A DNA stretch of 64,000 bases from a bacterium (lineage in GTDB: Bacteria > Auribacterota > Auribacteria > Auribacterales > Auribacteraceae). The position numbers and the translations under genes were made by a program. A model generated the notes under the pieces. The model was not told where the DNA came from, searched no databases, and worked only from the letters and a program-made list of their open reading frames with translations. Location of the stretch: contig JACKPL010000010.1 in the NCBI GenBank assembly GCA_024233545.1, positions 6,287 to 70,286 of the forward strand, read 5' to 3'. Shown here one piece after another: positions 9,033 to 61,722 of the stretch; the first letter of the stretch is position 1, and each line of letters opens with the position of its first letter.

Positions 9033-9211
9033 TTTTCTTGTGTGCCGATAGGTATTTTAAAACTTGTCCTTCATACGTGTGCCTCGTTAATTTCTATGGT
9101 ATATAACGTATTAGAAATAAATGATTTGAGCTAGTGGAATTAATTTCTTTATTGAGGAAAATTTTGCATATCCTTTCTCGGCGCATTGTTTAATTTAAGC
9201 TCAGATGTGCG

Positions 9212-9227
9212 TGGCACACGAATTGCC
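9212..9227 (+). promoter_or_regulatory. sigma54 (-24/-12) promoter upstream of fliK-flgD-flgE
   Basis: TGGCAC-ACGAA-TTGCC against consensus TGGCAC-N5-TTGCW. It lies 52 nt upstream of the fliK ATG within a 246-bp gap. Confidence 0.55.
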
Positions 9228-9278
9228 ATTATTTTTGGCGTATGATTGAACACTTTGTAGCATGGAAGGATATATGTA

Positions 9279-25057: not shown

Positions 25058-25067
25058 TGAGGTTTTA

Positions 25068-27123: not shown

Positions 27124-27540
27124 ATGGAAGTCGTCGAACGAAGAAATTTTTTTAGAGTACCTGTTGTTCTACCTGTTAAGTACAGCCAGTTCACTCCCAA
27201 TCCGAATGCCGATACATCATTTAACCGTGCAAGTATGCTCGATCTTAGTGGGGGTGGGATGCTTTTTGAAACACCTCGGATGATACAAATGAATGATTCG
27301 ATCGTTGTCCGGTTTTCATTGCCGTATAATGAAAAAAACAATGCGTTGCAGACATTTCATTTACAGGCATCTGTCATAAGAAGTTCATATGAAGACGATA
27401 AAAATATTTATAATTATGGTGTTGAATTTATAAACATTGCATCGCGCGTCCAAGATCGAATCATTAAGTTTTTATTCGATTTGCAAATTGCAGTTCAAAA
27501 AAATAAGTCTGCCGAATGCAAATTAAAACAAGCTGAGTGA
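27124..27540 (+). CDS. stand-alone PilZ-domain protein (putative c-di-GMP receptor)
   Basis: 138 aa with both PilZ motifs intact: RxxxR (RNFFR) and DxSxxG (DLSGGG). It starts 22 nt after the fliA stop. Confidence 0.85.
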   Translation: MEVVERRNFFRVPVVLPVKYSQFTPNPNADTSFNRASMLDLSGGGMLFETPRMIQMNDSIVVRFSLPYNEKNNALQTFHLQASVIRSSYEDDKNIYNYGVEFINIASRVQDRIIKFLFDLQIAVQKNKSAECKLKQAE

Positions 27541-30403: not shown

Positions 30404-30433
30404 AGGCCCTGGCTGAGGTTCAGTCCAGGGCCT
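30404..30433 (+). terminator. strong GC-rich hairpin 20 nt after the TolC-like stop (terminator-like, no U tract)
   Basis: AGGCCCTGGCTGA-GGT-TCAG(T)CCAGGGCCT: 13 bp, one bulge, 3-nt loop. It stands out in AT-rich DNA. It is followed by ACGCATACC, so it is not a canonical intrinsic terminator. Confidence 0.4.
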
Positions 30434-30623: not shown

Positions 30624-30834
30624 AAGATCGCAAAGACTGATTTTCCTGCTTTGGCATCCCAGTAAATTATGCTATAATTTGAATATGGAATAAACTCGGA
30701 AAATTAAAGAAAAAGCGTAAAAATTATATCATCTGTAACAAAAAGTCCGGATGAGGTCCCTTTGCGTCTATTAGGATTATTGTATTATGAACGTTATTTT
30801 TTAAAATTAACATACTAAATGGAGTTGTACTGCC

Positions 30835-30951
30835 ATGAACGGAAACAACAAAATTAAATTTTTTTCTATCGCGCCGGAGGGGAAAAAATTTAAGAGAATA
30901 CTCAGTTTACTGTTAATTGAGTCTCTCGCTTTTAGTTCGGTCGCTTGGGCG
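30835..30951 (+). other. Sec-type signal peptide of the giant protein (predicted cleavage AWA/DE after residue 39)
   Basis: MNGNNKIKFFSIAPEGKKFKR (basic n-region), ILSLLLIESLAFSSV (h-region), AWA|DEEK. Confidence 0.6.
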
Positions 30952-33900
30952 GACGAAGAAAAGGGTATCACATCTGATACGCTCAAAATACCGAATACTC
31001 TGGGCGCTGTTCAAGAACGATATGCCGGTGAAACTGATTCATTGGTAATTCACATTCAGGATACCCATACCAGTTACTCTGCACAAAAATACCTTTCCCA
31101 TATCCTTCGTTTTCTCCATGATTCATACGATACTTCGCTCATTGGCATTGAAGGCGCTTCAGGCATTATTGATACATCTGAATTTTCCCGGTTTCCCGAT
31201 AAGGAAATTAAGAAGAAAGTTTCAGAGTATTTTCTTAAAAGTGGAAAAATAGACGGTACAGAATATTTTTCCATTGTTGAAAATAGCGGTGATGGGGTTG
31301 ATGTATATAAAATCCGCGGGGTTGAAGTCGATGTATTATACCGTAGCAACCTCGATGCTTTTTTACGGTCGATACCGTATCAAGAGAAACTTACCGTATT
31401 TTGTGATACATATCAGGAAAACCTCAATCAGCTTAAAGCGAAAATATACAGTCCGTTGTTGTACCAATTCGATAATCTTGTGCAGGAATTTCATAGGAAT
31501 GAGCTCAATTTTGTTGTTTATTGCCAAGGGTTGCTTCACATTGCCGAAGAAAATCTTATCGAATATGACAAATTGGAAAATCTTACCCGCTTGGTAAGTG
31601 TTATTGATCTGGAGTCAAAAATAAATTTTCCAAGAGTAGATGCTGAACGTTATATCGCTGTGCGGCGTTTAAGCGGCAAACTCCCTGAAAGTGAATCATC
31701 GGATTTATTAGCGAGAGAATTTAATTTTCGGACAAAAAAGGTAACACCAGAGGAATATCATTTCTATCTTAATGAAGTTTTCAAAAAAAATGATTTTTCA
31801 ATCGATGAATTCCAAAATTTAAAAAACTATATTGAATACCTCTCTTCATTTTCTCAAATAGACCGCTCCAAAGCGCTTGCTGAAACACAACTGCTTGCAA
31901 AATCAATTTATGATACCCTTATTGTTTCTAATGACCAGCGCACCCTTTATGAACTTTCATATTTTGTTTATTTAATTAGCAAGTTTTCTAACTTAAAAAT
32001 GACTCGGGAAGAAATAGCCCTTTATCATTCTTACCGCCAGAAATATTCCTGTGAAAGCATCCGCGAATTTATACAGCATGCTATGAATAACTACGCAGTA
32101 ACGGTGACTGATAATTTTAATTTAGCCGAAGTAGAAGAAAATCTTTCCCATTTTGAGGAATTTTATAAAGTTGCGCATCAACGAGAACAGAGTATCGTAA
32201 AAAATACTCTCGGTTTAATGAAGCAAGAAAATCAAGATACCATCGTCTTGATTGCGGGCGGTTTTCATACGCCAGGGATTACTGAAATGCTTCAAAAAGA
32301 AGCAGTCTCCTATGTTGTGGTTACACCGAATATGGAAAATGACCCTGCGTCAATCCCTTATTTATCGCTTCTGCAAAATTTCCAGACTCCTCTTGAACAA
32401 ATGATTGCTACTAATACAAGCACGCTGAAAATAGCGTCATGGTTGGCGGATCAGCCGCTTGTTTACGGAGATCGTGCTGAAGTGCTGAAAACAAAACTAA
32501 AACTTCTTTTAAGCACAACCGCTCTTCATAAAGAGTGGATGAACACAATGGCTCAATATTCCCGCGAAGAGCAAGCGGCGCTCGGGTACCGTCTTGAAAC
32601 TCAGTTGGCTCAAGCGGTTAATAATGTCATTCAGATTGCCGGTTATCAAGATGTTCTTCACGTGAATTCAGTAAGCATGGGAATTGGTGGACGCGATTTT
32701 TCTGCTAATGTTACTATTCAAGGTGCCGGCGCAATTGATGTTTCGTTTTCTGATCAGGTACAGGGCGGTACCGTCGTTGAAGATATTCAAGACAATATTC
32801 TCGAAGTCATTCAGTTCAGCGACGGCATAACCACTCATATCATGAGCCAAATCGGTTCAAGCCGGCTTGCGCAGAATTTTGCCCTTATCCGCACCGTCAT
32901 TCTTCACAGTGTTTACTCAACTCCAAAAACAACGGATGAAATACTTGCCGATATTCAATCGGCACTTCCCGACACGTCGGTTACGATGGCTGAGCTTAAA
33001 GTCTATCTTAATGATTTTCGGAGTATGGGGGTTCTTGTCGAAGATACTGAAGGCAGGTTTGCTGTAACAAGCAATCTGAACCAGCGGCTTGCCGCATTCC
33101 TCGCACAAAGTTTAATCGTCCGGCAGGCCGGTAGCAACGATATTCAGACAAGCCGGATTCGCCGCGAAAATGTACCGGCAGAATTAGCCTCTCTCTTAGA
33201 AGGTTTAGAAATAAGCACATTGATTATTGATCCCACTATATCGCTTTCTTCACTCGAAAATTTTCTTTCGCGCCTGACTGAAGGCGAATTTAACGGTCAA
33301 ATTCAGCCGGGTGCTGTCATACAACTTTCTGATACATTGCAAGGTATTGTTACCCGTCCGATAGATAGCGCGGAATACATCTTTGCTATTATGCGCAAAC
33401 CGGCTGAATCTGAAGAAATCGGAACCGTCAGTAAAAATATTCAGAGTTCTTTTGAGCTGAGCGATCGTTCTCTTGCCGCTCAACGGAGTGGTTCGGATTC
33501 CCTTGTTATCGATTTGTTGCGAAATGAGTTTGGCAGGAACCTCGGTGTTTCCAATGATGAGGGGCTTGTTTTGGAATTATCTACCCGGCTTGGCGATGGA
33601 GAAAAATCGGTTCTTCGCACCTATATTTTGGATCGAATTTCCGATGATCAAGAAGTCCGGCAGCAATTGGCAAAGAGAATCAATTCTCTTCTCCGTGTTA
33701 AAGAAGAACTAGAAGGGCGTTTTACCGGACGAGTTGCACGGATTATCATCGGGAACAGTTATCCGGCTCAATTTGATCAGGCGGTACAAGTTATAACACA
33801 AATTAACCCTGATTTTGCAATTACTCGTGAAATTGAAGAACAAATCAATGCCGCTTTGATTCAATTGCACGGTTCCAACAAAAGAGGCGATTATCTCAGA

Positions 33901-36900
33901 TATGATTTGTGGCAATCAATCATAAATACTGCATTGGCAAGTGCTCCTGAAGCGGTGCGCAATTCTCGGTTTAATCAGGCAGTACAAAAAACTGTTGCAG
34001 AAATTCAAGAAATCCAACAGAAAGAAGATGGTAAGCCGGCTGGATTAGAAGAATTCCAGCGTATAATAAATAAACACCTTGCCGCTTTGGAATTACGTGC
34101 TGGTTCAATAGATGAGAATAAACCATTACTGCATCAAACAGCTCAAAGGCAAGCTCTCCTCAATCGAGCAATTGTAGAAGAGCATGTGCTTCGTTTTTCA
34201 TCACGGTCGGGCGAAATAGAATTGGATGTGTCAGTATCCAATCGTACCGCAACTAATACGTATTATGCATATGATAAAGCAACCGGCAATCACTATCTGA
34301 TTACACTGCTTTCTTTGGATGAACAAGGACAGGAGTTTGTCTACTCTACGGCTAACGAGCAACAGCAATCGGACGGCACGCCATATCCGGGTGTTACAGA
34401 AGATTCATCGGATGCGTTTTATGATGCGTCTGGGTTTCTTGTTCGGCGTATTGAACCTCAATCGGTACCGCGAAGCAAAGATGTTGTCAGGGAGATGCAG
34501 TACCGTGCATTACAGAATCAATGGGAACGATCATTACAGACAGTTCCGGCTGGCGTCATCCAAGCAAGCTTATCGCGCCGTTTGACTGGTGTGTTAGAAC
34601 AGAATTTGGAACAAAGTTCATTACAAGAAGCCGCCGCATCATATAGTGAAAATGTAGGCAGGCACATTGCAAATGCTCAGCAACAGCAACAGCGGTTACA
34701 AAGGGAACAAGTTGAACAGGAAGAGCAGTTAGAAAGATTGAAAAGGGAAATAGAAACGGCAAAATTAGAATTGAAAAATCGGGCAAATACCGTTACTGCG
34801 CGTCTCAATGAACTTGAAATTCAGCATGTCGCATATCAAAAAATAATCGGCAGACAGGATGAAGTGGTCGGAGAACTTCTGCTTGATTATATTTCGCGTG
34901 AAATGCTTCGTGTCATGGCAACCCGGTTGTACGAAACAGGCAGTATTCAAGGGATGAACATTGTGCTTGCAGAATGGGCAGGTATTTCGGGTGCCACGGA
35001 TGCACGGTTGGCAAGCATTCTTGCGCAGAACCCGGAAAAAATACATAGCCTTGATTTTGGGCGCATTTTTTCGCGTGAAGATGTTGCGGCTTTGCTTAAT
35101 GTCTTGCCCGAGGGTATTGATTCGCGTTTGATTGACCGTTTTTTCCCAAGTGTTCCATCGGGACGAATAGTAAGCAAAACGACAGTTGATGCAGTAATGA
35201 AAAGACTGTCGCAACCTCAAACGGCCGCTACTTTTTATAACATGCTGAATGATGTGCTCGGCATCAGAAATCTAGAAAGGACTCTTATTCCTGCCGATCC
35301 GAATCGCGCAACAGTTGAGCGGCAAATTCAAATTATCAAAAATAAAATTTCATCTTATACGAACAGTACTGATGCTCGAGCCTCTTTGACCGCTTCTCTC
35401 GCTGAACTGGATCGTGCCAAAGAAGCCCTTAAACCGGTGGAAGTAAATGGAATTGCGATTACCGCCATTGAAGCCCAGAGGCGAAAAGAACTCGATGAAT
35501 ACCCGCAGATTCGCAATGAACTTATCAATAAAATAAATAGCCTTCAAGAGACATTGCGTGTTGCAACAGCATCCCTCGATACATTACAACAGCGTACGAA
35601 TACCGAATTGCAAGCGGTTAATCGGCGTATACAATTTTTGAGAACTATTCAACGGGCGCTTGAAGGCGATACTGCTCCGGGTCGAAAGCCGGAGTGGCTG
35701 TTCGAAGGAATACGTGCAAAAATAGAACGAGGTGATACGACGGTTCGAACAGTCGGGATGAGGCGCTTAAAAGGAGACCTGCCGCTTACGAAAGATAATC
35801 TTTCCGCAATCGTTTTTGGATTAGCTTACAATATTTCAATCAACGACCAGATTACTGCCGAACAACAAGGGCTTCCTCGCCAAGAAATTGACGAGTTTGC
35901 CGCAGTTGTTAAAATGGCTGAACAAGCATTTAATGAAAACCGTGATAAAGCTATTAACCGTAATCAAGAACAAGAACTGGCAATTCAGCAGTCTCAAGTG
36001 GAAATTGTTTCGGGAGGTGTGCGCGCAAATCTCTTGGTATATGGACAAGATGCCGCAAATGAATTCGGGCAGATAAATAATCAGGCGAATAATGTGCAAG
36101 TAAGTTCTTTAATGAATCGTGCCTTGCAGTTTTTAGCCACCATAGACCCGATAATAGCAAACGCCATAAAAAAACAGATGCGTATTGTTATTCTGCAAGC
36201 GCCGTTTTATCCTTCCGACGAAGCGAAATATCAAGAATTATTACAGATTGGGCGTACTACACAAACTTTGTATATCGAGAAAGCTGTTTTCGGGCGTGTC
36301 ATGGAGTTGCTTGCTACTAATTCCGGTGCGGCTGTACGCCTTATGGCCGCTTCTATGGCATATGCGGCGCAAGGAACAATCTTTCCTGAAACTAATGTGT
36401 TCGATATAAATCAATTGACCGTTGAGCAACTGCAACAAATCATTACGTCACGAATGGAACGAATAGGACGGCCTTTGGATGCACAGCGTGCGGAACTTAT
36501 TGCCGGAGCAATTGTACAGCTTCGTTCGCGTGCGCCCATCAGGCAAGTAGGGGATTTGGAACAACTCTATGGACAATTGCAAATGCCGGAGTTGCCGTTG
36601 GTTTTTGCCGTTACGCAATCATATTTTAATTTTAACGGTACACTAAAGGAACCGGCATATAAACTTGTTGCTTCAAATAAAGCAGATATACTTCTCGGTT
36701 CAAGCTTTACAAATTTTCGGCGTTTATTGATGGTTGAGCGCCAGCGTTATTTGGAAGGCATGAATCTCGATGAAATACCTGCATCGTTAGCCGCAACGGA
36801 TGTCGAGTCATTATGGTCTGTTGTCAATAATGCGAATGTTCCTGTTCAGCATCAGTATTATGTTTTTCTTCGCCGGCTTTTTGGGACAAACTTTATTCCC

Positions 36901-57900: not shown

Positions 57901-60900
57901 AATTACAATGAACGGATTCAAAAGGCTAACGGTTCAGTTGTAAAAAGATTAAAAAAGAGTGTATTTAATTTAAAGGTTTTTCTAGGTATTACCCCGCAAA
58001 ACCAAACAAATGCTGTGATTGATAAAATTGCCGGCTTATTTAACCAGAAAAAAGCTTTAGAACAACAAAGAGCGGCAATGGATGCTCAGGTTGACGCATT
58101 TATTACGCAAGAGTACTATGTTCCCGAAGGTGAAGAAGCTCAAATTGCTGACCTTAAAAATGCAATTGTTATTCAAGATAACGCTTTGCAAGCACAAGAA
58201 GCCGCATTTGCCCGGTTAGAAGCAGTAAATTCAGCTATTGCTGTTGCTGAAAAGGAAAAAATAGCGAAAGAAGAACGTTTGAAATCGCTTAGAGACCAAA
58301 AGAAAACCCTCTCTGAAGATATTGCAACATTACCGAGGCGATATAAGCAATCTATGAGTGAGCAAAAAGATGCAATCCGCCAAAATAAAAGTTCGATTAG
58401 TGAACAGATCGCAGTTTTACAAACGATGTTGCAAACTGTTGAATCCGATAGCGTATGGGTTACGGAACAGCAAAGTGTTGCCGAAGAATCTGGTATTCAA
58501 AATTTGATTGATGCGGTTAGTCTTGAAATTCAGGCATTAGATGCGAGGAAAACTGCCCTGAATCAGCAAATAGATTCCTTAAAGAAACAATTGGATGCAT
58601 TGAATAAAGAAGAACAAGCGCTTGCTTCTGAACAAAAAGCAAAAAATCAGGATGAAATAGACACTTTTCAAGCTGAACAACGAGGTGCACATCAAGAATA
58701 TCTTTCGGCATTTGAATCCCAACAAACCGCAATTGAAAATCATCGTCAGGCATTTGTTGTACAGCAACAAAATTTTGAATTGCATGTTTCCTTTGTGACT
58801 GAACCGTCAAAACAAGTTCAGAAAAAGATAGATCAGATGCGCCGTTCTTTTACTGATCAGAACAGGATGTTTGTCGAACAGCAGGAGCGCGTCAATACGC
58901 AATCTCAACAGTGGCGATTGCAAGGCGAATTATTATCGTTGCGTGAAACGCCGTTGCAGGAACAAATCGACGCTCGTAATCAGCGGCTTTCAGAAATCAA
59001 TACTGAGTTGGAAACGTTGCTTCCTGAAATAAAAACAATCGCTCAAAGCTTAGAGGGTTATACCAAAGAACGGGCTCAGGCATTAGTAGATCAGAAAGCG
59101 TCGTTTAATGAGGCGAGAAAAGCATTTAAAGAGCAACAGCGCATAATGCAGAGAATGGAAAAAACAGGCATTCCTGACGAGCAAAGAGAACCCTTTGAAG
59201 CCCAGAAAAAAGCGTTCGAAAACCAAATGGCCGCTTTTGAACATCAGGAAACATTCAACCGTGTAAATGATGCGGTTAAAACTGTCAAACAGCTTTTTAC
59301 CCGTAAGAACAAAAGGACTACGCTTTTTGAGAGTTTCTTTCCTTTGGAGAAAGATAATGTGTTTTATAAGTTGTTGATATCGCCGCTCAATTACATCGTG
59401 AACCATGGTTTGCTTGGTCTCGCCGGAGCCGTTGTTGCCGCACATGCTACAGTTGGTATTGTTCCCGCGGTAACGATGCTTATTTCCGCTTTAACAGCGC
59501 CTCTCGCGTTGATGGGGGTTTTGTCTGCAATCACTCCGGCTATGATTGCGGCATATCTTGTAGTAGGTGTGCTTTTTGTATCATTATATAATGATACAAT
59601 GATGAAAGGGGTAATTGGAACATTATCTGTTGGCGCTGTTGTTGCGGCTTTGACAACGGGTATTGGACCTGCTCTTGGTGTCGGCATGTCGTTGCTTGCC
59701 GCTCCGTTTGCTATTCCCGGGTTTGTTGGATTGCTTAGTTCTGTATTTATTGCCGGTCTTGCCGGATTCGCGTTAGGGCTTATACCTGTTATGGCGTGGA
59801 CAGGGTTGCGTAACTATACAGAGAATATTTCTTTATTTAATTCACTAAGAATTATTTCGCGTGCCATGGACTCTCCTGTAGTAAAGGATACCCCTATAAA
59901 GAATAAACTGGGCATTGTCGGTGCTATAAAAGAAATGGAATTCATCGATCAAGGTTTAGGTATTGATGAGGCAAATCCCAACGATCCGTTTCCTTTTAGA
60001 TCAATTGTTAGAGCAATACGTGACGGCAGTAACCTTGTGAAGGATACCTATGAAGGAACGCTTGATTCTGCGAACATGATACAACGTGCGGTTCAACATG
60101 GAATAACTATGGAGCCCTCAACTGTCGATGAAGAATATATTGTTACATCTGATGCTTCTCCCCAAGCGGTGGAAGGCGGTTTTCAGGAGTTTAACTACAA
60201 TAATACTGAAATTGAGCCGGCGGTAGAAGAAATTAACGATGAGTTTGCGCGGCAGGGGCGTTTGATGCTTGATAACCTTCGCCGTGCGGCAAATGAGAAT
60301 CCTCATGAACTGCTGAGAGCGGTCAATGACTATATTACTCAACGCCGGTTAAGTGAAGCGCCAATGGGATACGAAACAAATTATGAATTAGCAACCCTTG
60401 ATGATATAAAAGCATTGGCTGACCTTACCCGTGACCTGAAGAATCATGGTTTTATTGATGTTCGTATTCGGGCACATAGGAATGATGTGAAGATTTTGGG
60501 CAAAATTTTCGGGCTCAATGAAAAAGATGCTATGGATGTGCTCAGCGGGTTTTGGAGTGAAGCCCGTTGGCCGGTTGCGATTGGTGTGCCATTCCTCCCT
60601 GGAACAACTAAAGGAAGAGTACGTATTGCAGAACGGGGAGGCACCATTGAAGATGCACGCCCGATTCCTTTGATGTCTGCACTGCTTGCTTTTTCTGAAG
60701 CGCCGTGGCTTGCGGGATTGTCGGCATTTAATATACTTGATACTGAAGCGGATGACCCTGCATATGCTCTCGCTGAAGATACAAAATTTGGTATTATGGG
60801 TGTATATAATCCTCCTTTATATCCTAATACACCGGCGATTTCCGTACACTTGAAGCAGTATGTAGAGGAACAATATGAGCGTCGCCTATTTGGTGAAAAT

Positions 60901-61722
60901 AGTTACAAAACAGCCGCTCAAGTGGGTAAAGGATTTAGTGTATTGCATGGTTTGCAGTCTTTATTCAGCCACCCGATTTTTACTTATGGTGCGAGTGATG
61001 AAAAGCAGATGAATTGGCAAGAAGTGATGAGTAATGTATTCAATTCGAAAGCAATGAAACGTGATGAGATTGCATACGAAGGAGCTGGGCGAGGTTCAGG
61101 CTGGATTAATTACATTATTTTTGGATATACCTTGTATGGGCACCTTGCAAAAAGAATAGGCGCATTTCCTCCGGGCGTTGGGCAGGCGGTGAGGCAAATT
61201 CAATATATTCAGGAGTTGAATAACCAACTTGAAGGCGATGGGCGGCTCCTTAAAGTTATTAGGTATCTTCAAATTACCAGTAAGACGCCTATTTTAAATG
61301 GGTTAAGCGGTGTTGATTTCCGTCTTGCTGTATCAATTGCCAAAGGCCTTGAACAGATAACTGTTGCGGGAAAAACACCGGATATGGTTTTAGATGAACT
61401 GATTCAGGAAGCCTTAAAAGATTATATGCGGGGATTGAATGAAACGGAACTTGCGAAAGCGCGTGCCTTGTTCATTGCTGGAAACAATTTATTCGGACAA
61501 GATATTCCTATTCCTGAAGAGTTTGCACAGAAAGAAATAGCACAAGAAAGACCTGCGCAGACGGAATCATTTGAAGATGCTGAACAAATCGGAAAAGACA
61601 AAACTGGTCAAGATCAGCCGGAACCTTCACGTGAGAATGATGAAAAAATGCATTCTATTGTACAGCGGCTTGAAGAAAAGGTTTTACTCCTGAACAAATT
61701 GAATCTATTCAAAATAATATAG
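30835..61722 (+). CDS. giant secreted/membrane-associated multidomain protein, 10,295 codons as annotated (probably longer, see 61674-64000); function unknown
   Basis: A single open frame of 30,888 nt. All other frames across it are fragmented into ORFs of under 260 codons. GGAG lies 10 nt upstream of the ATG. N-terminal Sec signal. The sequence is protein-like and non-repetitive, with internal paralogous modules, coiled coils and TM clusters. Confidence 0.9.
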   Translation: MNGNNKIKFFSIAPEGKKFKRILSLLLIESLAFSSVAWADEEKGITSDTLKIPNTLGAVQERYAGETDSLVIHIQDTHTSYSAQKYLSHILRFLHDSYDTSLIGIEGASGIIDTSEFSRFPDKEIKKKVSEYFLKSGKIDGTEYFSIVENSGDGVDVYKIRGVEVDVLYRSNLDAFLRSIPYQEKLTVFCDTYQENLNQLKAKIYSPLLYQFDNLVQEFHRNELNFVVYCQGLLHIAEENLIEYDKLENLTRLVSVIDLESKINFPRVDAERYIAVRRLSGKLPESESSDLLAREFNFRTKKVTPEEYHFYLNEVFKKNDFSIDEFQNLKNYIEYLSSFSQIDRSKALAETQLLAKSIYDTLIVSNDQRTLYELSYFVYLISKFSNLKMTREEIALYHSYRQKYSCESIREFIQHAMNNYAVTVTDNFNLAEVEENLSHFEEFYKVAHQREQSIVKNTLGLMKQENQDTIVLIAGGFHTPGITEMLQKEAVSYVVVTPNMENDPASIPYLSLLQNFQTPLEQMIATNTSTLKIASWLADQPLVYGDRAEVLKTKLKLLLSTTALHKEWMNTMAQYSREEQAALGYRLETQLAQAVNNVIQIAGYQDVLHVNSVSMGIGGRDFSANVTIQGAGAIDVSFSDQVQGGTVVEDIQDNILEVIQFSDGITTHIMSQIGSSRLAQNFALIRTVILHSVYSTPKTTDEILADIQSALPDTSVTMAELKVYLNDFRSMGVLVEDTEGRFAVTSNLNQRLAAFLAQSLIVRQAGSNDIQTSRIRRENVPAELASLLEGLEISTLIIDPTISLSSLENFLSRLTEGEFNGQIQPGAVIQLSDTLQGIVTRPIDSAEYIFAIMRKPAESEEIGTVSKNIQSSFELSDRSLAAQRSGSDSLVIDLLRNEFGRNLGVSNDEGLVLELSTRLGDGEKSVLRTYILDRISDDQEVRQQLAKRINSLLRVKEELEGRFTGRVARIIIGNSYPAQFDQAVQVITQINPDFAITREIEEQINAALIQLHGSNKRGDYLRYDLWQSIINTALASAPEAVRNSRFNQAVQKTVAEIQEIQQKEDGKPAGLEEFQRIINKHLAALELRAGSIDENKPLLHQTAQRQALLNRAIVEEHVLRFSSRSGEIELDVSVSNRTATNTYYAYDKATGNHYLITLLSLDEQGQEFVYSTANEQQQSDGTPYPGVTEDSSDAFYDASGFLVRRIEPQSVPRSKDVVREMQYRALQNQWERSLQTVPAGVIQASLSRRLTGVLEQNLEQSSLQEAAASYSENVGRHIANAQQQQQRLQREQVEQEEQLERLKREIETAKLELKNRANTVTARLNELEIQHVAYQKIIGRQDEVVGELLLDYISREMLRVMATRLYETGSIQGMNIVLAEWAGISGATDARLASILAQNPEKIHSLDFGRIFSREDVAALLNVLPEGIDSRLIDRFFPSVPSGRIVSKTTVDAVMKRLSQPQTAATFYNMLNDVLGIRNLERTLIPADPNRATVERQIQIIKNKISSYTNSTDARASLTASLAELDRAKEALKPVEVNGIAITAIEAQRRKELDEYPQIRNELINKINSLQETLRVATASLDTLQQRTNTELQAVNRRIQFLRTIQRALEGDTAPGRKPEWLFEGIRAKIERGDTTVRTVGMRRLKGDLPLTKDNLSAIVFGLAYNISINDQITAEQQGLPRQEIDEFAAVVKMAEQAFNENRDKAINRNQEQELAIQQSQVEIVSGGVRANLLVYGQDAANEFGQINNQANNVQVSSLMNRALQFLATIDPIIANAIKKQMRIVILQAPFYPSDEAKYQELLQIGRTTQTLYIEKAVFGRVMELLATNSGAAVRLMAASMAYAAQGTIFPETNVFDINQLTVEQLQQIITSRMERIGRPLDAQRAELIAGAIVQLRSRAPIRQVGDLEQLYGQLQMPELPLVFAVTQSYFNFNGTLKEPAYKLVASNKADILLGSSFTNFRRLLMVERQRYLEGMNLDEIPASLAATDVESLWSVVNNANVPVQHQYYVFLRRLFGTNFIPDQIFEAVSSFDPNSSAEEYVSYTQQLQKLLDNYIGEMTVSLKRATQQLNNRGTIDYVVTYPNGEQVQLSVYEYRQLMARMEHYAGQIQVYFQPGQGLGIMLRDGEKAPKRLPYLVRMNDEAAFLNQVLVQGRKRSFDELMLDSPYQQSLSVSVGVGVADYGSVQAGTSPQANYIQQRENAMQVRVLYETIAAYIQQKQPDIWQSLTLNEQKGLAALLAIQNNVDVSWVNLISNIYNEDISLSMTRRVQDIFSEWTSNDSLDVFVNALFDLLVIMGQSEWQNLAPASKQAVFQTVLNKYGDELSDQKHRDSLEVFFAQREPQAAESAPVLTAQDIQFLWMISDQEVKSSGELGIIQNELKRFSSLIEMRERALDERQTELDTLKTTDLKPEIQQTITTEEAQIGYETFLLNQLRMSVQHASSVSVVQAVDDFNKEFSGMMRIDASREFINQNPDTIRALIEFLRQPLEFDEQAHPDIVKIQQLLDQYSSVRSLWNSGQQEQAIEQLQALIGQIAEFLGTTQFLSGQPSLAQFEYDLDLLKNYVDGTEQDIRQIELFGGIGLLHKELLRRVPANLYIPALLAVPGYIAGNIVPVAGVTDIVISLKTAEFEPRQFDIFDELNRNRYRDEGIVYDQQTIFINTDRIDPQSETFFESVADTFVDSYISTSRKISNEIDALERAGLPADLRMYQFGAEALEKSGAPIRLENGFQARDIVLSGDNFGYSIPVALPPHKFEQLRQNQLAMMRLVQTYITQASLFVSEQSDFETARDFLQEAGRLATNLQLFSPVLVNNILNTIKRDLDDVEAQLKLAQGEPPADSILLYGGRSDIFKQNPILTDTPTVRRLLDGAFNNLASGLGEDVARDVRNRFSIVIGARPRENIPVNVIYISAAKFDMLRYLASNENTETTASILLARYLFDSYKNVPQLLSKIFLDQIAVSENALEKYLIPVQVNSTEPNRDYTGEVIIPHDIRYNQLGQPFANLSGRQTVTKFRNGQPVEVVNRGQQQVAIDPRSGLPIRQKDGSLAGEAVRYESERVFSLSYMQGDPQIGGFSLVRNNEGDATRLDLLSRAEKWIGPLSQGEMINDEIVGRDEVYVLSKNGTPVALIKARDEKDTVIPLVSSIELIRVLGVESHEEAMQELNTMAENRRVKVREIELKYAERQTAYEQQSREPGRTARVTLASMAGLMLLQTLSGCATSMGPRPDLPVGDVSYQPPVVPDDGSPVTDISRYTGVTDTQPSFPQAILFDAQQGGLDLLNKALTAAENELAGLEKHGVVNSDRAKILKDRIGVLRDRIASLSSLPTTQIPQMEPDTRRTSQQSGQYVDRQVDRTGVVQGQPDIVFPPQLASELQNILSAQEYKTLMADIVKFSVNQTIDAGSPAFTGDKKFDGWVRSYDGDESDKDYPFLAKPGRVFGYDQSLSVYADIANKDYAKAKRKVDALFRIMEYERGRGLDSVIRFSYNTDGTGYEAALSPMGNTSWVLKSIFAYMDVTNDRSYLSGRNGELLLASMRYVLDKQVLDRADVRYGLFQGGSKPTIVDGKIQSIPMEVVFSEHNADVHDLLNLAYRVTGMQIYKDRRLLLDQQMLRTLFVDDARGTYFKPNLDRSGETKQGIAIDNLTWGGSMVLTMDHLPLATRLDITRKLINHIRNNFAVEHVPGQQEAKPVALTPSFVAQRIAKPSNAVVGLKFFDEVFRDDFLTQPIDWDSPNIMSVQFEATIGYIHLLIQTAYLTSDSSERAQLINEAKFLFSNIQKFHAGNSKKGGISYSTRPITGIQTSLESLVASETLRTLTGIWSNPDLLWTFIGASSQSLQGDKTVQPIDPNLNPINAVILGTDAKPDILSQSLQGRVPEKVTPAGTVVIDARTQTAIHAESQYGTVAVGTAEDTSVSRVFREDFAWVVDFLRGLGEKPDLSPQQVQKWNNTILNPISWQADISAIAPLKRLAQNTQYSATIEKGKLRILVEHPIAAAQFRGVEFKNAGDRFEITIIGNEVRVKATLNAAEYERYKDMSDVTQRIYRDLSAPAVFKLSDFPSLAGYADQSGKPVVIQARLDASRQNLLVEDKQPSIVVNAASIFGNQFFAPDNQKFTLSIDGRNRLNITENTDLGSVFQNPWSPNIPAEKLPQMFAALRASGHTAIYVNTDPLVYKNTIHGTNTRRYYMAMIELARREGIKVFAVQGSSDWVTVSGVSDALLFVDELGKKQLDFDGYVLDVRPERMKDWNTYNDQDKDIFIQRYSRLMEELRQRLAYYAGGQKEIFSYVSPDVESRKTYRSPKEVSDVLVMQHTSVTDILAQLQQYDPQRPFQLYIETSLLNDPSRTFALKEAEMASVLRDLAKSLRSNPKYGALFRGFVVNHDTGEDILHVLQTGKGRGAGDRMEDSIYKAPDGAVHITGNMYQFIVTGGKPEVVPLGADSPSAQQETVRTIRSRLEAIARGITGAGNIDHMARSVIETIRRDKVTVMSDAPPLGAEIGSLISYSNILWGQQYTDLGQINNVKIVGVDESGKTVAEWHDLINNPVPIVVGIHSKIVKLKVQVDVKSADTAGKVFPGYIAFLTHHPGSGGVVTETASDEFILKQGEGRTIAFEVPVSREGFNNYSIMLLHGKKFSKSEAVVDQVGFAQRFSIVEHWIKTHASGFPEFYRDAIVNDVNSQINQAGVFSGVVKSRVVVQDFTIDDFTVAKGRTIANLLAASGITELTLDGEKLRQLILQSPNENLAKKQIADFMNLITEQNIRLVLMVGNRSWLDSLNGKQNMQNDLNAIFRMKLPFNSVVLNLGDNIAAAYDILPEIQRLASNEGLADSQLRPVEVYDTTDLQPVPPARQQTVRLDNALQNLIDTMRSAENLQQLRDDSRSFVNTQQVKRGLFRGAVTGYDANEKHPQYGSDEYKALIQFGRVNPYDVSVSVFADINNGDYRSARTKVRSLLRVIQSEQDSGFNGVVHFWYNTDGDESVSGIAPLGNTAWTLKAIFAYIDATGDRSILEGKSGESLRKSLDFVLSQQVTDSKDPRYGLFMAGLRRNVDASGVAIDKSGRPIPKGAPAVYNQMGHVVFEHQADVHDLFNLAARVLTDSQDTQKRTAIQSARKLLDREVMSRMFVDAGTDGAFFIPNLNADGTRGVGEAIDDLTWAGSMVLTMDETQLSQTQKLQIVRRMIAYINKNFIVEHDPNVENAQNVALTPALIANRLSRPTTTIIGTKFFDAKFKDEFVPERNWDDPKVLSVHVEGTLGYINLLYQTALLTPDANEREQLLRTAKFLLDNITKLKNAKSTNGGIPYSTRAISEIQSTFDSTIATETYRALMGVFSNPDLAWSFIGVREASLPRIPTVPTIPQTIQTSQDVLNSLRTGLDIAPLPFTNFNSLQNVLQSIPQADSDALSERAQLVTEQDLEQYVDIGLSKLSRVERLLMGFSRVKRLPRVQLGESAAEVDLVTSRTIFVGTDTAPYVTVNIENTGNLAVGAFTAIVELRNTVTGERKEIAFPILMRQKEARQINLPIEHLEAGQWRYDISVVPEYFQRDRSFIPSKPLTVGGTTVKVGQWDFTAFMPGEKGEPQNERTVRFQNYEFQLIENYGPNNANAVRFYDEKGVPQIKVLTDRRQGVDFEFGPSRIRVNVSKNSFNEWAIDVGGEEATIARLHSGEEVLTVGVPHKARIFGYIQKGLPKIQVTNIEVDTKKRYLEDTVSQIIDLEYNKEYKLQGHTLVFKGHPNDEMIQIQVTAPDGSIDRRVFHRDSPRRVVELDSHVFIFGNNADGKTVGVISRVSNVTFTFDVTNDGDSPLRYQPELTFYHPLVGEVSLPGRVQYTINPGETKRISMDGPVPADILAKEKERLLDALSNARLLQEEYDNFYIEKRREIDSGERHRSIVQGELQTRQNQNKIKLAGWLRDSIALIKEVQNKHLVQEAFIAYRLDLNARIAQLQSLISKIEDPKLSQEEYGVLSIQIIHTMNIVMGDLNDLSTQKMGYKISIHDVSNLLGEKVYSRGLSGAPGATTQQPVIRDVVVEPVLVKTEPQQVRRIGKAEYANVMSGIITPTVVDQRANAYVGEEMDYYNAFVQQSLLAESISRVQSFDLPTAKLAEETALENIVVATSDLDRTQSRDLIAVLFNSINKLKIADQRGGSTYILRHDTRVIGTEKVIYDASISAIEDLLAAIQADDSKVVKSDLSRFLTDLGQFFGFIQSDGATKAETIIRMKEFLKGEDPATIDRAVRVVEDIMVDGKRATRRDAVMIAMQVLVKEEVRERVKALAFEQLRTQLAQDRTYIPEVIRILSQANVGNDSRSMIRTLEREQNGRYSYYIKFVEQNKTKTLAELRERQAELAPIEAYLNLVEEHDRAKRLMDEAESIVKHNGDPVVQLQEVRRAFDRSMAFFLQIIEVQPNFSVITNLDQVIAKINASNLSAADKKHAVDTILAIKADLQKYTQLLERRKTALSAADTALQSRSEEIGKAEILLKRLTEISTNHDLFLKRNEQEAEKEFGRVQDALRQLPADQAIPLIQEMQRLHVRYLRNHVEALERATVERNRYQSIIQENQTLIQQLRQAIAQEDSDTRKRVMTSKLRLLQRDIYEATSRVAFDDWYIPELEKQISRMQNRIAQFNGAIVDLGGTPDRSIFDAQLKTTQTAARDARRFSDNLSGAVTLLNRQQTQLIGSLEELERKYNYTQQMRDVSREMPISAVLKDIHLIHNPESYIKFLQENGIKEIYIDFADLATREELEKLGSDALQPYNPNRVNTTDLHRVKLAGRVIQAANQNGMQVKILIKGQEEWGRGRWRFLFFSGEERPGTTVMKDLTKKLRLFQIHLFEHDISIDGFAVDFPPRVVDGKVDLDNYREARNTIGEILTEETDELMDGLKERIESLDEKGYVDRANRLRQILRQGPSAFTYEYEVFESPETARMINQYVMRNATPNERTEIFKGTPVLVPTRPVTSVTTESTIDMMQRVGSLPSVNHGLVIDWSGTAAQNRQEELPAILQKLNEHRKVSLRTGQPLGKVILGGDTTNVVDLQRNLNALGAVPLHALNLLETQQDVREAYQSRMREYTLGLRGQLDHLTEILEKEKAYRDTHEKVLGIVNQAVLQEGLVLELPAFLQADSGDFDQLRQRTQTVIKKLEQKLRPGTTFEELQELSNEIDTLYRDANIHVRRMRLSLNALLSPEGIAYGSATDPRGFLTGTSSVSLNLTNLISKAMPYVGVSLTVVGRDGKADQRDLLKESRELQREVQNLRQQALIFANFNSQIQTTDLQLQKDRTDIALLRRGVDIASKPDAQIAPIRVQIHQPLTIYIDGVRQNIPVGTHVIKGNVFTALKEIRALLLVMKDPSEKARVKAEGLEKAYDALRKAFTEIPTVKKGDSFIKKETKELVAVRSIDNARENLLQAESLLQQAQLGKQAAEATLEHAKLGMQDSDRLLKKAILDIQLAETGEKQAQKDAEDALKDLIKSLTGIDAAQRMHYSSQLGEVGTSIRLDQATDDLSKAYFNFDTIIHRLFRVFSQIGGPSAEDEFKQFFAAYRSGVVTEGFGLESVLGSGTPYLGIDDSKEASLAAELVGGAIRPFTISLYGGLFNIAWSPLNPQQVGFSMTYRPAEDSIVGKAQYNLLQRHAQHILGQMVTEDRREDVERATAHFGRMIESYQDAVIWANAMKEEKVKAEKRQQAAKDDLTRAELFLKNQQFELQRAEENLRSKQLGKIAAEASVDEIEREAADKITPAEGQGEFLNQGQPKVIDEAVDTTIDQKRDLSDAEIREQRVSSVLARLFYAVAGFILGLFTLDRNKRLFTRWKLSKQREAVQKGEGKRKGIMAALVQDFTFDRVTISKIIPFSGRRIVEMAKNQAQFKRVARLMRRYGVDSMAVVAEELKDAGKFVEEERLTYGSLFRSEKIKNLSLKQRWQYRTRLFLRLFRAQYDDLISSGKFKIFWGLLTIGLGIFVFPVVGFPTLPLKLLFSIPMLWGGDPLLSPILFLSDPTMILPWFFWVPFLYVLPRLLYNLVVMIPVTRSVLALLMFVGKGVAEYLGKKALFVMVPFLPVAAMFQKVVNGIFRRELISIRTFENAVEKAGQSIKKQTVSAIPKPIREAFDIRERRAGTGPEFSRQFSENAVALARQWAEENGLGPLEQMKKADAQKLINSFIIQETIKQTKHIVFQDEGNALRVNVGAEADELAISPGQFASMPAIYVPFFLPTKGHFNKWFWGIMIQNFTQSLQYAASMGARGLRGAERGANAKHKMFSHIVSKSELDIHSFLFMVQPRWLVGHLHVVREELVGGRIVIDLDFYDARELQDKQAPPGVEQWANVEDYVRYLIDRREEIDELDSETLAELFAKGGDIQINFPDGMPEDEKESIKQDMELRFKQLTSIAAGYYRAYPDEFNPFYGPGENVTFSGHFPDISPMDAADRFGLGSYEQDPTEGVFYARGNYFGGFNYAAGGVNVRGEDGNLSFEPTGEIVRVEYQQKEEHGKGKQKIPGSKATNLNAILLAIQGQTYITREVVRKEDGSAELNIQFKDAHEEFLPEVAEAREEFEEKSAGRDQAFRKGWWKSAKKRFVKVWDNVTKDYITVNLGTRLGFEPFAGLRGTLAKWKTLTLGAVIGVIPVSLYGNLQDPINAAMQSYYDPIVVEKVAQSTIYQNNKIYRKNVKKFAEDAHILDNQSVSLGQRSSSDTTEETYMFVPTNVLQENEESRLEFARALHALARNVGVHIPVELFEQNAELLTDSYQSLVTFFLAVEQQRLEQRRYAQGSIITSWEKGIAEKGAALVNTQEYIQRLSSLFPEKSTARQGLVFLASTVGNTEESMDITIHRSDIGTESRSFDMRALYKVGIYNRTSEKYTAAFNKIAGMTYHGSHDDNVHRSGALERQLGDRGREPIIRLGQERNALQGTRSWAMVSPRGPLGIYQITSMAKRIRNGQDNPVAVEFMRQLVEAANENGTLIDRIIIHDGNGNAPSSNLRDSANWKILVVSDSQNFLTNTKQLEPLFNQVVSAMKKRMSASSKQDFAPTLANVDVIHKDAFRTLEQFRVLTQDGNELDNYNERIQKANGSVVKRLKKSVFNLKVFLGITPQNQTNAVIDKIAGLFNQKKALEQQRAAMDAQVDAFITQEYYVPEGEEAQIADLKNAIVIQDNALQAQEAAFARLEAVNSAIAVAEKEKIAKEERLKSLRDQKKTLSEDIATLPRRYKQSMSEQKDAIRQNKSSISEQIAVLQTMLQTVESDSVWVTEQQSVAEESGIQNLIDAVSLEIQALDARKTALNQQIDSLKKQLDALNKEEQALASEQKAKNQDEIDTFQAEQRGAHQEYLSAFESQQTAIENHRQAFVVQQQNFELHVSFVTEPSKQVQKKIDQMRRSFTDQNRMFVEQQERVNTQSQQWRLQGELLSLRETPLQEQIDARNQRLSEINTELETLLPEIKTIAQSLEGYTKERAQALVDQKASFNEARKAFKEQQRIMQRMEKTGIPDEQREPFEAQKKAFENQMAAFEHQETFNRVNDAVKTVKQLFTRKNKRTTLFESFFPLEKDNVFYKLLISPLNYIVNHGLLGLAGAVVAAHATVGIVPAVTMLISALTAPLALMGVLSAITPAMIAAYLVVGVLFVSLYNDTMMKGVIGTLSVGAVVAALTTGIGPALGVGMSLLAAPFAIPGFVGLLSSVFIAGLAGFALGLIPVMAWTGLRNYTENISLFNSLRIISRAMDSPVVKDTPIKNKLGIVGAIKEMEFIDQGLGIDEANPNDPFPFRSIVRAIRDGSNLVKDTYEGTLDSANMIQRAVQHGITMEPSTVDEEYIVTSDASPQAVEGGFQEFNYNNTEIEPAVEEINDEFARQGRLMLDNLRRAANENPHELLRAVNDYITQRRLSEAPMGYETNYELATLDDIKALADLTRDLKNHGFIDVRIRAHRNDVKILGKIFGLNEKDAMDVLSGFWSEARWPVAIGVPFLPGTTKGRVRIAERGGTIEDARPIPLMSALLAFSEAPWLAGLSAFNILDTEADDPAYALAEDTKFGIMGVYNPPLYPNTPAISVHLKQYVEEQYERRLFGENSYKTAAQVGKGFSVLHGLQSLFSHPIFTYGASDEKQMNWQEVMSNVFNSKAMKRDEIAYEGAGRGSGWINYIIFGYTLYGHLAKRIGAFPPGVGQAVRQIQYIQELNNQLEGDGRLLKVIRYLQITSKTPILNGLSGVDFRLAVSIAKGLEQITVAGKTPDMVLDELIQEALKDYMRGLNETELAKARALFIAGNNLFGQDIPIPEEFAQKEIAQERPAQTESFEDAEQIGKDKTGQDQPEPSRENDEKMHSIVQRLEEKVLLLNKLNLFKII
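40417..40482 (+). other. internal lipoprotein-type signal (lipobox L-S-G-C, Cys3216) inside the giant ORF
   Basis: RTAR-VTLASMAGLMLLQTL-SGC followed by the Pro-rich spacer SMGPRPDLPVGDVSYQPPVVPDDGSPV. Confidence 0.5.
41058..42310 (+). repeat. paralogous module copy A (putative (alpha/alpha)6-barrel, glycosidase-like)
   Basis: Collinear with copy B. Shared blocks: YNTDG, GNTxWxLKxIFAYxDxTxDRS, RYGLF, EHxADVHDLxNLA, IDxLTWxGSMVLTMD, VALTP, GGIxYSTR, SNPDLxWxFIG. Confidence 0.7.
45475..46825 (+). repeat. paralogous module copy B (putative (alpha/alpha)6-barrel, glycosidase-like)
   Basis: See copy A. Protein-level similarity only; the DNA has diverged. Confidence 0.7.
54097..54940 (+). other. 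first transmembrane-helix cluster of the giant protein (1 + about 5-6 helices)
   Basis: LARLFYAVAGFILGLFTL; IFWGLLTIGLGIFVFPVVGF; LLFSIPMLWGG; ILPWFFWVPFLYVLPRLLYNLVVMIPV; VLALLMFVGKGV; ALFVMVPFLPVAAMF. Confidence 0.6.
59400..59805 (+). other. second large transmembrane-helix cluster (about 6 Gly/Ala-rich helices)
   Basis: GLLGLAGAVVAAHATVGIVPAVTMLISALTAPLALMGVLSAITPAMIAAYLVVGVLFVSL...GTLSVGAVVAALTTGIGPALGVGMSLLAAPFAIPGFVGLLSSVFIAGLAGFALGLIPVMAW. Confidence 0.6.

Follow-up and report, generated by a model that had tools for sequence, protein, structure and literature searches.

Giant proteins that are rich in transmembrane (TM) helices and in part without any Pfam match ('Pfam-dark') have been documented in Omnitrophota and neighboring phyla, where they reach 85,804 amino acids (aa) (10.1101/2023.11.21.568195). 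A more recent catalogue contains 5,761 proteins of at least 10,000 aa and lists 137 of 916 catalogued proteins as Pfam-dark and 39% as having a signal peptide and TM helices ('SP+TM') (Nielsen & Lui 2026, 10.64898/2026.06.07.730766). The locus described here offers concrete handles on how such chains may be exported and processed in the giants of the Planctomycetes-Verrucomicrobia-Chlamydiae (PVC) group. We analyzed a giant gene that begins at position 30835 of a 64,000-nucleotide stretch of bacterial DNA, hereafter the window (NCBI GenBank assembly GCA_024233545.1, contig JACKPL010000010.1, positions 6,287 to 70,286 of the forward strand); all positions below are those of the window unless another locus is named. 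An earlier annotation of the same DNA, made without database searches and referred to here as the sequence-only reading, had held that proteins above 10,000 aa are very rare in bacteria, a claim that does not survive the 5,761 counted in this part of the tree (10.64898/2026.06.07.730766). Because thousands of giants have been catalogued, a bare open reading frame (ORF) of 10-11 thousand codons is no longer surprising. Giant genes of such kind are already known; what appears to be new, within the literature searched, is the putative TIKI-like identity of a shared N-terminal module, a conserved internal lipoprotein signal, the synteny with response regulator, TolC-family and flagellar genes, and the finding that the reported stop is a frame break.

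The reading that we favor, with a probability of roughly 0.55, is that the locus encodes a membrane-anchored envelope protein made of fused parts, and that it is a real giant gene running past the TAG at 61720 in a bacterium of the PVC group. From the N-terminus, the product would consist of a signal or anchor and a TIKI-superfamily-like hydrolase module, then about 2,600 residues of mostly helical sequence leading to an internal lipoprotein-type signal peptide, then a stretch of about 4,500 residues, probably periplasmic, with two carbohydrate-enzyme-like barrels, and finally a C-terminal third in which predicted TM helices would be clustered between large conserved domains.

With the giants of the PVC group ('SP+TM', 'Pfam-dark'; 10.1101/2023.11.21.568195, 10.64898/2026.06.07.730766) this protein shares a length of more than 10,000 aa, a largely non-repetitive sequence, a signal-like N-terminus together with many TM helices, carbohydrate-enzyme-like folds visible by structure prediction only and an N-terminal module of about 500 aa that is also found in many Omnitrophota, Elusimicrobiota and Chlamydiota proteins. 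In contrast to them, it has no SecA-DEAD, C39/S8 peptidase, dockerin/TSP3 or multi-enzyme Pfam content, it is flanked by a flagellar cluster, a response regulator and a TolC-family gene instead of type II secretion (T2SS)/type IV pilus (T4P) and glycoside hydrolase (GH) family 2 genes, and it has an internal lipoprotein signal and an extreme cysteine depletion that are confined to its own orthologue group. The Archaeovorin-type giants of Omnitrophota (West-Roberts 2023) exceed 30,000 aa (a gene of more than 90 kb), as compared with 10,295 aa here, or at least 11,055 aa with the continuation described below; numerous TM helices are common to both (by hydropathy), whereas the divergent SecA DEAD/preprotein-binding, glycosyltransferase, methyltransferase, GH, peptidase and NUDIX Pfam domains of that type were not found in our protein at E <= 0.01. 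Dockerin-type giants are characterized by many dockerin, TSP3 or repeated Pfam domains, of which our protein has none, its only repetition being one duplication.

The giant ORF as first called is the following:
30835-61722, plus strand: giant ORF, 10,295 codons and TAG, collinear with relatives.

The ORF list and direct translation both gave a single frame from the ATG at 30835 to the TAG at 61720-61722 with zero internal stops. As the remaining five frames over 30835-61722 contain 384-871 stops each (one stop per 12-27 codons), an open frame of 10,295 codons is not due to chance, in agreement with the sequence-only reading. The three-nucleotide periodicity that had been proposed as a check was uniform across the ORF: GC content at codon positions 1, 2 and 3 is 0.558/0.368/0.362, and the first position exceeded the second and third by at least 0.128 in 21 of 21 consecutive 1.5-kb segments, a pattern also shown by flhA. 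Of note, the segment 30835-32334, about the region of the N-terminal module, has values below those of the rest of the gene (0.478/0.294/0.332). The description of the protein as essentially non-repetitive with internal paralogous modules was likewise borne out, since TRF reported no tandem repeats in the window and self-comparison with BLAST and phmmer found one duplication only (aa 3366-3913 versus aa 4845-5421, 35-46% identity). Scans of the window for tRNA genes and Rfam families found nothing. Pfam searches with 10 tiles and the C-terminus (E <= 0.01) gave zero families, and nothing relevant was seen with selected regions at E <= 5; NCBIfam searches with 10 tiles returned weak coiled-coil noise only, and sequence searches of the PDB (phmmer with aa 1-5000, aa 5001-10000 and module 1; profiles of alignments A1, A2 and A3) found nothing relevant. 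The giant gene is real, conserved and coding.

An exact look-up of the upstream TolC-family protein located it on four independently assembled contigs (L001-L004), which reproduce the 5' end of the giant ORF and its junction with the TolC-family gene at 99.9-100% amino-acid identity for up to 1,445 residues; the 0-7 differences from the window are too few for a comparison of synonymous and non-synonymous changes. In addition, a syntenic locus of another sample (L005) is collinear with residues 1-10240, and two further loci (L006 and L007) show such collinearity over the C-terminal third. Overall the orthologues (P0001-P0006, L005-L007) are collinear at 28-56% identity, the partial orthologues P0001-P0006 being uninterrupted over up to 5,865 residues at 28-35% identity. 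The end-to-end collinearity with L005 argues against a chimeric join. The idea that unrelated sequences were joined during assembly and stayed in frame by chance, whose sole hint is a lower GC content (0.37) in the first 1.5-2 kb, is effectively refuted already by this collinearity and that of L006 and L007 for the C-terminal part, by the conserved synteny, by the four contigs that span the 5' junction, by a 100% identical fragment on another contig (P0120) and by the uniform periodicity.

Analysis of the 3' end showed that the called ORF is interrupted by a frame break:
61676-61679, plus strand: frame-break site, a run of four A in CTT GAA GAA AAG GTT, located by alignment of the junction with relatives.
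61680-63998, plus strand: continuation of the gene in the -1 frame, recognized by its open frame, homology, same codon periodicity and hydropathy.

The TAG at 61720 stands 41 nucleotides past this site. In the -1 frame no stop occurs between 61674 and the end of the window, and the stops in the two frames restrict the break to 61674-61722. The continuation comprises 773 codons counted from the break at 61680, or 758 when counting begins at 61725, immediately behind the TAG. In the -1 frame a start codon first appears 53 codons in, and homology to the relatives begins at the first residue, before any start codon. In L005, L006 and L007 the counterpart of the continuation lies in the same frame as the match to the C-terminus of the giant, as one continuous ORF. 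The sequence-only reading had ended the gene at 61720; as the -1 frame is open and homologous to this in-frame continuation, that TAG is probably not the natural end. A run of five A, or a -1 slip on A_AAG (tRNA-Lys), would yield a protein reading ...LEEK-GFTPEQIESIQNN..., as in the relatives: the corrected junction ...RLEEK-GFTPEQIESIQNNIGHL... aligns with ...LLAEGYTQADIDEILVNIIQL... in L006, and the predicted peptide across the break is LEEKGFTPEQIESIQNNIGHLGISDR (LEEKGFTPEQ). The codon periodicity is intact on both sides, and the continuation encodes two more hydrophobic clusters (61920-62123 and 62649-62909). The corrected gene has at least 11,055 codons within the window. Past the junction the relatives carry 1,141-1,556 residues in total; the window covers the first 758 of them, and the full protein would thus have about 11,400-11,900 residues.

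An assembly error, a real mutation and a programmed frameshift are all candidates for the origin of the break. A programmed -1 frameshift by slippage on A_AAG is formally possible; no stimulatory RNA structure was predicted at the site (z = 0.42). Two exact-pattern scans of JGI metagenomes, with four or five A allowed, gave no match to a second copy of the break site, and a homologue search with the downstream frame as query found nothing. The giant ORF contains about 186 homopolymers of at least 5 nucleotides without any further frame break. In practical terms, what looks like the stop of a giant ORF can result from a frame break of a single base, and lengths taken from gene calls on metagenome-assembled genomes can therefore be underestimates.

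The break could also be taken as inactivating, the locus being on its way to a pseudogene, and the fragmented state of three other loci would then be part of the same trend. Indeed L005, L007 and L012 contain many frame switches, and a codon read as Trp in the window is an in-frame TGA in L006. However, this single break in the window is preceded by 10,282 and followed by at least 773 stop-free codons in DNA whose other frames have a stop every 12-27 codons, and coding periodicity does not fade on either side of it. Moreover, homology is seamless across the switches in the three fragmented loci, of the 11 switches that were inspected in L005, 8 coincide with homopolymers of at least 4 nucleotides, and the contig names (contig_31, contig_36, ctg91624l) suggest long-read assemblies; we read these switches as indel errors and not as boundaries of separate genes. 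The short-read locus L013, for its part, contains an intact homologue of 4,631 aa. Decay of the gene is in our view very unlikely. This L013 homologue (P0006, 3691-21329 of Logan SRR28093593) is complete and has only its first ~2,300 residues in common with the giant. The TGA in L006 (4509-4511 of NCBI GCA_021161885.1, JAGGZS010000328.1) is a single codon, aligned to a TGG codon at aa ~9937 of the window protein, and because of it the ORF orthologous to the giant is called there as two genes (1-4511 and 4530-9041); candidate explanations are an error of sequencing, a nonsense mutation and leaky read-through of UGA.

At the N-terminus two features were delineated:
30835-30951, plus strand: N-terminal signal peptide or signal anchor (aa 1-39), with n-region KKFKR, h-region ILSLLLIESLAFSSVAW and AWA|DEE.
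30967-32364, plus strand: N-terminal module (aa ~45-510), TIKI-superfamily-like by family alignment, structure model and motif spacing.

The features of a signal peptide are present here (KKFKR, the hydrophobic helix and AWA|DEE), consistent with the Sec signal that the sequence-only reading had called, and no other conserved hydrophobic segment in the six orthologues compared is as strong as this helix, whose hydropathy averages 1.83. Its h-region contains a conserved 'ES', which is unusual for a cleaved signal, and given this motif the helix may not be a simple cleaved signal.

A search with residues 1-5000 retrieved 117 proteins of 2,750-7,871 aa, and besides the six collinear orthologues nearly all of them match residues ~17-540 only. 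The N-terminal module is common to 110 giant proteins, annotated as Omnitrophota, Elusimicrobiota, Chlamydiota, Endomicrobiales and similar, which downstream of the module hold unrelated content (phosphoglucomutase, radical SAM, SecA-DEAD, kinases, PP2C). Among these 110 sequences H78, E106, G162, R450, G475, G476, H478 and P498 are conserved in 99-100%, Q84 in 98%, D76 in 95% and Y169 in 94%, and all of these positions are invariant in alignment A1, the 18-sequence sample of the family that was used for modeling. The AlphaFold (AF2) model of the module (predicted local distance difference test, pLDDT, 83) has an alpha/beta core of 5-6 strands with flanking helices, divided by a helical insert of about 300 aa (aa 166-464). 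Foldseek found no significant match to this model (E 0.28-1.3, probability at most 0.44), and the sole globular matches were EreC (6xcq/6xcs), Bcr135 (3B55/2RAD), HopBA1 (5t09) and ChaN (2g5g), whose structures are listed as TIKI superfamily (PMC6254334). The catalytic set of that superfamily consists of two His and two Glu plus an Arg, namely H85/E113 in Bcr135 and E3900, H3902, E3930, R4001 and H4030 in RRSP (PMC6254334). The spacing reported in that work is matched by D76-x-H78, by the 28 residues from H78 to E106 and by the 28 residues from R450 to H478. Finally PF04187 (ChaN) is the only Pfam family that recurs among the members (5 of 18; 6 of 17 with the insert removed), all matches being below threshold (best E 3.8e-4) and the giant itself having none. 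Because motif spacing, Foldseek neighbors and recurrent PF04187 agree, we regard the module as TIKI-like with moderate confidence, and its His/Glu/Arg/His set is apparently intact.

Compared with the described TIKI superfamily (Tiki1/2, TraB/PrgY, EreA-C/Bcr135, ChaN, HopBA1 and RRSP of MARTX toxins), the module shares the invariant order [D/E]-x-H, 28 residues to E, then R and 28 residues to H, and the alpha/beta core of its model may correspond to theirs; like RRSP, it is a domain inside a giant multi-module protein. It differs by the insert in its core, by a first acidic residue that is Asp and not Glu, and by having no match above threshold to curated TIKI models (e.g. PF04187, PF01963, PF05139). 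The N-terminal regions of giants are generally without identifiable domains (West-Roberts et al. 2023, 10.1101/2023.11.21.568195), and neither a TIKI-like N-terminal domain nor lipoboxes are mentioned in 10.1101/2023.11.21.568195 or 10.64898/2026.06.07.730766. The module links more than 100 otherwise unrelated giants over several phyla and can be expressed and assayed alone.

Deep inside the chain we found a second export-type signal:
40405-40482, plus strand: internal lipoprotein-type signal peptide (aa 3191-3216), with RxxxRTAR, h-region VTLASMAGLMLLQT and lipobox LSG|C3216.
40483-40629, plus strand: Pro-rich linker (aa 3217-3265) that resembles the tether of a mature lipoprotein.

The sequence at this site, ...REPGRTAR-VTLASMAGLMLLQT-LSG-C-ATSMGPRPDLP..., combines a positive n-region, an h-region, a canonical lipobox (pattern [LVI][ASTVI][GAS]C) and a Pro-rich tether, all of which it shares with bacterial lipoproteins of the Lgt/Lsp/Lnt pathway; unlike theirs, it is located 3,190 residues inside the chain and not at the N-terminus, and a limited literature search found no described precedent for a signal so deep inside a polypeptide. 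It is the second conserved hydrophobic segment across the six orthologues. Collinear canonical lipoboxes are present in P0002 (LLLMTGC) and P0003 (LLLLTGC) and lipobox-like variants in P0001 (AIAVGC/LAGC) and P0005 (LALAGSAC), in proteins that are only ~30% identical overall, and in the orthologues the positive charges lie on the N-side of the helix. The protein contains only 4 cysteines in 10,295 residues (0.04%), three of them in the N-terminal module and the fourth being Cys3216 itself. For reference, Cys makes up 0.54% of 17 neighboring proteins and 0.4-0.6% of other giants with the same N-terminal module. In a scan with a regular expression and hydropathy, the internal lipobox proved to be restricted to the orthologue group. 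The idea that giant proteins generally have internal lipoboxes was considered and rejected, as 5 proteins outside the orthologue group had one versus 4 in reversed-sequence controls. An internal translation start ahead of the signal was also rejected: the window offers no convincing Shine-Dalgarno (SD) sequence with a start codon at this point, and the orthologues have no conserved Met. As a proposal for how a giant is cut and anchored, this conserved signal is testable.

Downstream of the linker lie the two copies of the duplicated region:
41047-42279, plus strand: (alpha/alpha)6 barrel, copy 1 (aa ~3405-3815), by AF2, Foldseek and alignment A2.
45484-46794, plus strand: (alpha/alpha)6 barrel, copy 2 (aa ~4884-5320), 35-46% identical to copy 1, with all invariant columns of A2 kept.

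The invariant residues of copy 1 in alignment A2 are D3438, Q3538, E3574, H3575, D3637 and W3641. The barrel model, built from 25 sequences, has 12 helices, a pLDDT of 92 and a predicted template modeling score (pTM) of 0.93, and Foldseek against the PDB gave 263 matches at E <= 1e-3 (probability 1.0, top E 5e-8, TM-score 0.55-0.6), the best neighbors being glucose and cellobiose 2-epimerases, YihS, GH100 invertase and GH125, GH88 and GH76 enzymes. With the AGE superfamily (N-acylglucosamine, cellobiose and glucose 2-epimerases, YihS) and the GH100/GH125/GH88/GH76 enzymes the barrel thus shares the twelve-helix fold, as modeled, and conserved acidic and His residues, but it is only 9-15% identical to them and forms a family of its own with ~80 representative clusters. 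Among these 80 clusters of homologues are proteins of 450-500 aa that stand alone. Neither the query nor the profile had a sequence match in Pfam or the PDB, and Pfam gave none with ten stand-alone homologues either. The glycosidase-like modules of the sequence-only reading therefore hold at the level of the fold, with GH enzymes among the structural neighbors, and fail at the level of the family, there being no Pfam/CAZy-type assignment and the top neighbors including non-hydrolytic epimerases; the barrel may be a hydrolase, an epimerase or a binding domain only. Among stand-alone homologues with complete N-termini, 27 of 52 begin with a signal-like segment. Since two or three stand-alone homologues are lipoproteins with the lipobox directly before the domain, the order of lipoprotein signal, linker and barrel in the giant looks like a fused lipoprotein gene. 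One further giant, P0112 (5,457 aa, with PP2C/NAGPA domains), shares both the (alpha/alpha)6 module and aa 9907-10136 with our protein, and this sharing of two separate pieces suggests shuffling of modules among giant genes.

The C-terminal third, in which TM helices were estimated from simple Kyte-Doolittle hydropathy peaks, is organized as follows:
54097-54153, plus strand: TM helix (aa 7755-7773), hydropathy 2.02, topology putative.
54586-54945, plus strand: cluster of ~4 predicted TM helices (aa 7918-8037), by hydropathy.
54952-57963, plus strand: best-conserved block (aa ~8040-9043), 55% identical to L006/P0118, no fold assigned.
57964-59334, plus strand: variable Q/E/K-rich coiled-coil spacer (aa ~9044-9500), unaligned in L005, L006 and L007 (tblastn gaps).
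59386-59784, plus strand: cluster of ~5-6 predicted TM helices (aa 9518-9650), by hydropathy.
59785-61584, plus strand: conserved block (aa ~9650-10250), 56% identical to L006, aa 9907-10136 being the part common to giant P0112.

Further hydropathy peaks in the continuation (aa 10363-10430 and 10606-10692) bring the estimate to ~17-20 hydrophobic helices in several C-terminal clusters. Directly after the helix at 7755-7773 comes a strongly basic loop of 144 aa, which by the positive-inside rule would lie in the cytoplasm. The block at aa ~8040-9043 had no match in Pfam, NCBIfam or the PDB, and the coiled-coil spacer gave weak SMC-like matches only. In the wider family, a charge skew at the first TM helix after the module (94 versus 45) turned out to be an artefact of adjacent helices, isolated helices giving ~40 versus 31 in a hand tally.

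Taken together, we propose that the chain would be targeted to the membrane, where Lgt and Lsp would recognize the internal signal, lipidate Cys3216 and cut the protein into an N-terminal piece and a lipoprotein/membrane piece. Residues 3216-7754 would face the periplasm, the barrels would act on envelope glycans as their substrate and the neighboring TolC-family gene could supply an outer-membrane partner. This topology is consistent with both the basic loop that follows TM7755 and the charge bias seen at the internal signal.

Several observations weigh against the envelope protein as proposed, in addition to the possibility, considered above, that the frame break could mean an inactivated gene in this genome. 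The N-terminal helix and the internal signal both have an N-in/C-out charge bias, and the hydropathy profile of the six orthologues contains no conserved hydrophobic segment between them, so the two cannot both work by ordinary Sec logic. A hidden TM helix between the two signals was tried at the peak of aa 2597-2617 and dropped, this peak not being hydrophobic in the orthologues. Export alone does not explain the cysteine depletion, because stretches predicted to be cytoplasmic are depleted too. The TIKI assignment rests on motif spacing, sub-threshold Pfam matches in relatives and Foldseek matches at E >= 0.28, no TIKI member was recovered from the PDB with the A1 and A3 profiles, the giant itself has no sequence-level family match and ~80% of it is without fold assignment. 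No transporter ATPase or adaptor accompanies the TolC-family gene at the locus. As for the barrels, their closest structural neighbors are often cytoplasmic epimerases and about half of their stand-alone homologues have no signal.

These last points can be accommodated if only the first ~3,150 residues are exported, the internal helix acting as a stop-transfer sequence with an unused lipobox and the rest forming a scaffold that faces the cytoplasm with epimerase-like barrels. Such an arrangement removes the topology conflict between the two signals. AGE-family, YihS and GH100 enzymes, the neighbors of the barrels, are located in the cytoplasm, 25 of the 52 stand-alone homologues are without a signal-like N-terminus and many module-bearing proteins carry cytoplasm-type enzymes (phosphoglucomutase, radical SAM, kinases); a sugar-metabolism module in giant proteins has also been reported (10.64898/2026.06.07.730766). 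The cytoplasmic scaffold does not account, however, for the conserved lipobox, the tether or the charge bias: a canonical lipobox with one of only four Cys, followed by a Pro-rich tether, is conserved in five orthologues at ~30% identity, and the positive charges lie N-terminal to the internal helix. It would also place the 144-aa basic loop after TM7755 in the periplasm, contrary to the positive-inside rule, and some stand-alone barrel homologues are lipoproteins. We consider it unlikely and prefer the envelope protein. A bolder version of the latter is that the gene encodes a true polyprotein, a chain of more than 11,000 residues that Lgt/Lsp would lipidate and cut and that with its TolC-family partner would form a new trans-envelope apparatus. 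Its TIKI-like head would then be a catalytically active entry module across Omnitrophota, Elusimicrobiota, Chlamydiota and Auribacterota-like giants, perhaps one that processes or matures them; we offer this as a tentative possibility.

The genes and signals immediately upstream of the giant gene are the following:
27914-28822, plus strand: response regulator with HTH_28, by Pfam.
28888-30384, plus strand: TolC-family outer-membrane factor (OEP), by Pfam.
30651-30678, plus strand: sigma-70-like promoter TTGGCA-16-TGcTATAAT, 11 of 12 in a consensus scan with an extended -10, a consensus match only.

The promoter-like site, the only type seen before the giant gene, is ~157 nucleotides upstream of its start codon, and a ribosome-binding site (GGAG, 30821-30824) precedes the ATG at 30835. 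The order response regulator-OEP-giant recurs in L005, L012 and L013, that is in four genomes with the window, and in L005 and L012 it directly follows FlhF-FlhG-FliA-PilZ-CheX. This conserved arrangement next to the flagellar regulon is a handle for further study. In the window a near-complete flagellar cluster (3351-27101, plus strand) encodes FliF, FliG, FliH, FliI, FliJ, FliK, FlgE, MotA, MotB, FliM, FliR, FlhB, FlhA, FlhF, FlhG and FliA and is followed by PilZ (27124-27540), and the giant gene stands at the downstream end of the flagellar cluster in three genomes. With the giant adhesins of type I secretion systems (T1SS; LapA, SiiE, RTX) and MARTX toxins the locus shares the very large size of the protein and a TolC-family gene next to it. 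MARTX toxins are in addition multi-module polyproteins cleaved once they have been exported, and cutting is proposed for our protein as well. Unlike the T1SS adhesins, however, the giant has no tandem Ig/cadherin/RTX repeats, no ABC transporter or adaptor/membrane-fusion gene adjoins it (its neighbors being the flagellar genes, the response regulator and OEP) and its many TM helices are incompatible with a secreted T1SS substrate; unlike MARTX, it has no cysteine protease domain.

A scan of GTDB species genomes with FlhA gave three close relatives, an uncultured bacterium (72%), a Candidatus Auribacterota bacterium (69%) and Bacterium R3-B46 (68%). Auribacterota is a phylum of the PVC group whose type MAG encodes flagella (PMC9324843). 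As the closest named FlhA relative (69%) is Candidatus Auribacterota, the host is an uncultivated bacterium of the PVC group that appears to be closer to Auribacterota than to Omnitrophota. The link to Omnitrophota made by the sequence-only reading thus stands for the N-terminal module, shared with Omnitrophota giants, and is not supported for the host. An alternative, suggested in the sequence-only reading, is that the protein serves a predatory or epibiotic life as in Omnitrophota, as a weapon exposed at the surface that digests the walls of other cells with its glycosidase-like modules, a role that has been proposed for giants in the literature (10.1101/2023.11.21.568195; 10.64898/2026.06.07.730766). 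The shared module, barrels with GH100, GH125, GH88 and GH76 neighbors and the signal-like and membrane-anchor features would all fit. In contrast, the closest named FlhA relative of the host is from Auribacterota, the gene adjoins a flagellar cluster, a response regulator and a TolC-family gene and not the T2SS/T4P and GH2 flanks of Omnitrophota giants, and Pfam detects no SecA-DEAD, dockerin, TSP3, lectin or peptidoglycan-hydrolase domain. Hydrolysis is not established by barrels whose top neighbors are epimerases/isomerases, and nothing in the locus speaks to prey contact. We regard such a role against other cells as unlikely.

Downstream of the homologue in L013 (P0006) are ABC2_membrane and ABC_tran (Wzm/Wzt-like) and Capsule_synth genes, a hint that the locus may be connected with the export of surface polysaccharides. 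In L013 and in L007 alike, a transglutaminase-TPR gene is found downstream of the homologue. The window contains a GC-rich inverted repeat (30404-30433, plus strand; AGGCCCTGG...CCAGGGCCT) without a T-tract, 20 nucleotides past the TolC-family stop and ahead of the putative promoter of the giant gene, where it may serve as a terminator or as a site of processing. Four antisense ORFs of 151-258 aa, two inside the giant gene (34765-35220 and 54453-55214, minus strand) and two inside fliI and flhF (6817-7536 and 24307-25083, minus strand), are most likely spurious. At the other end of the window the interval 1754-3350 has no ORF of at least 150 aa, and upstream of it and of the flagellar cluster lies a gene for an ApbE-family FAD:protein FMN transferase (719-1753, plus strand).

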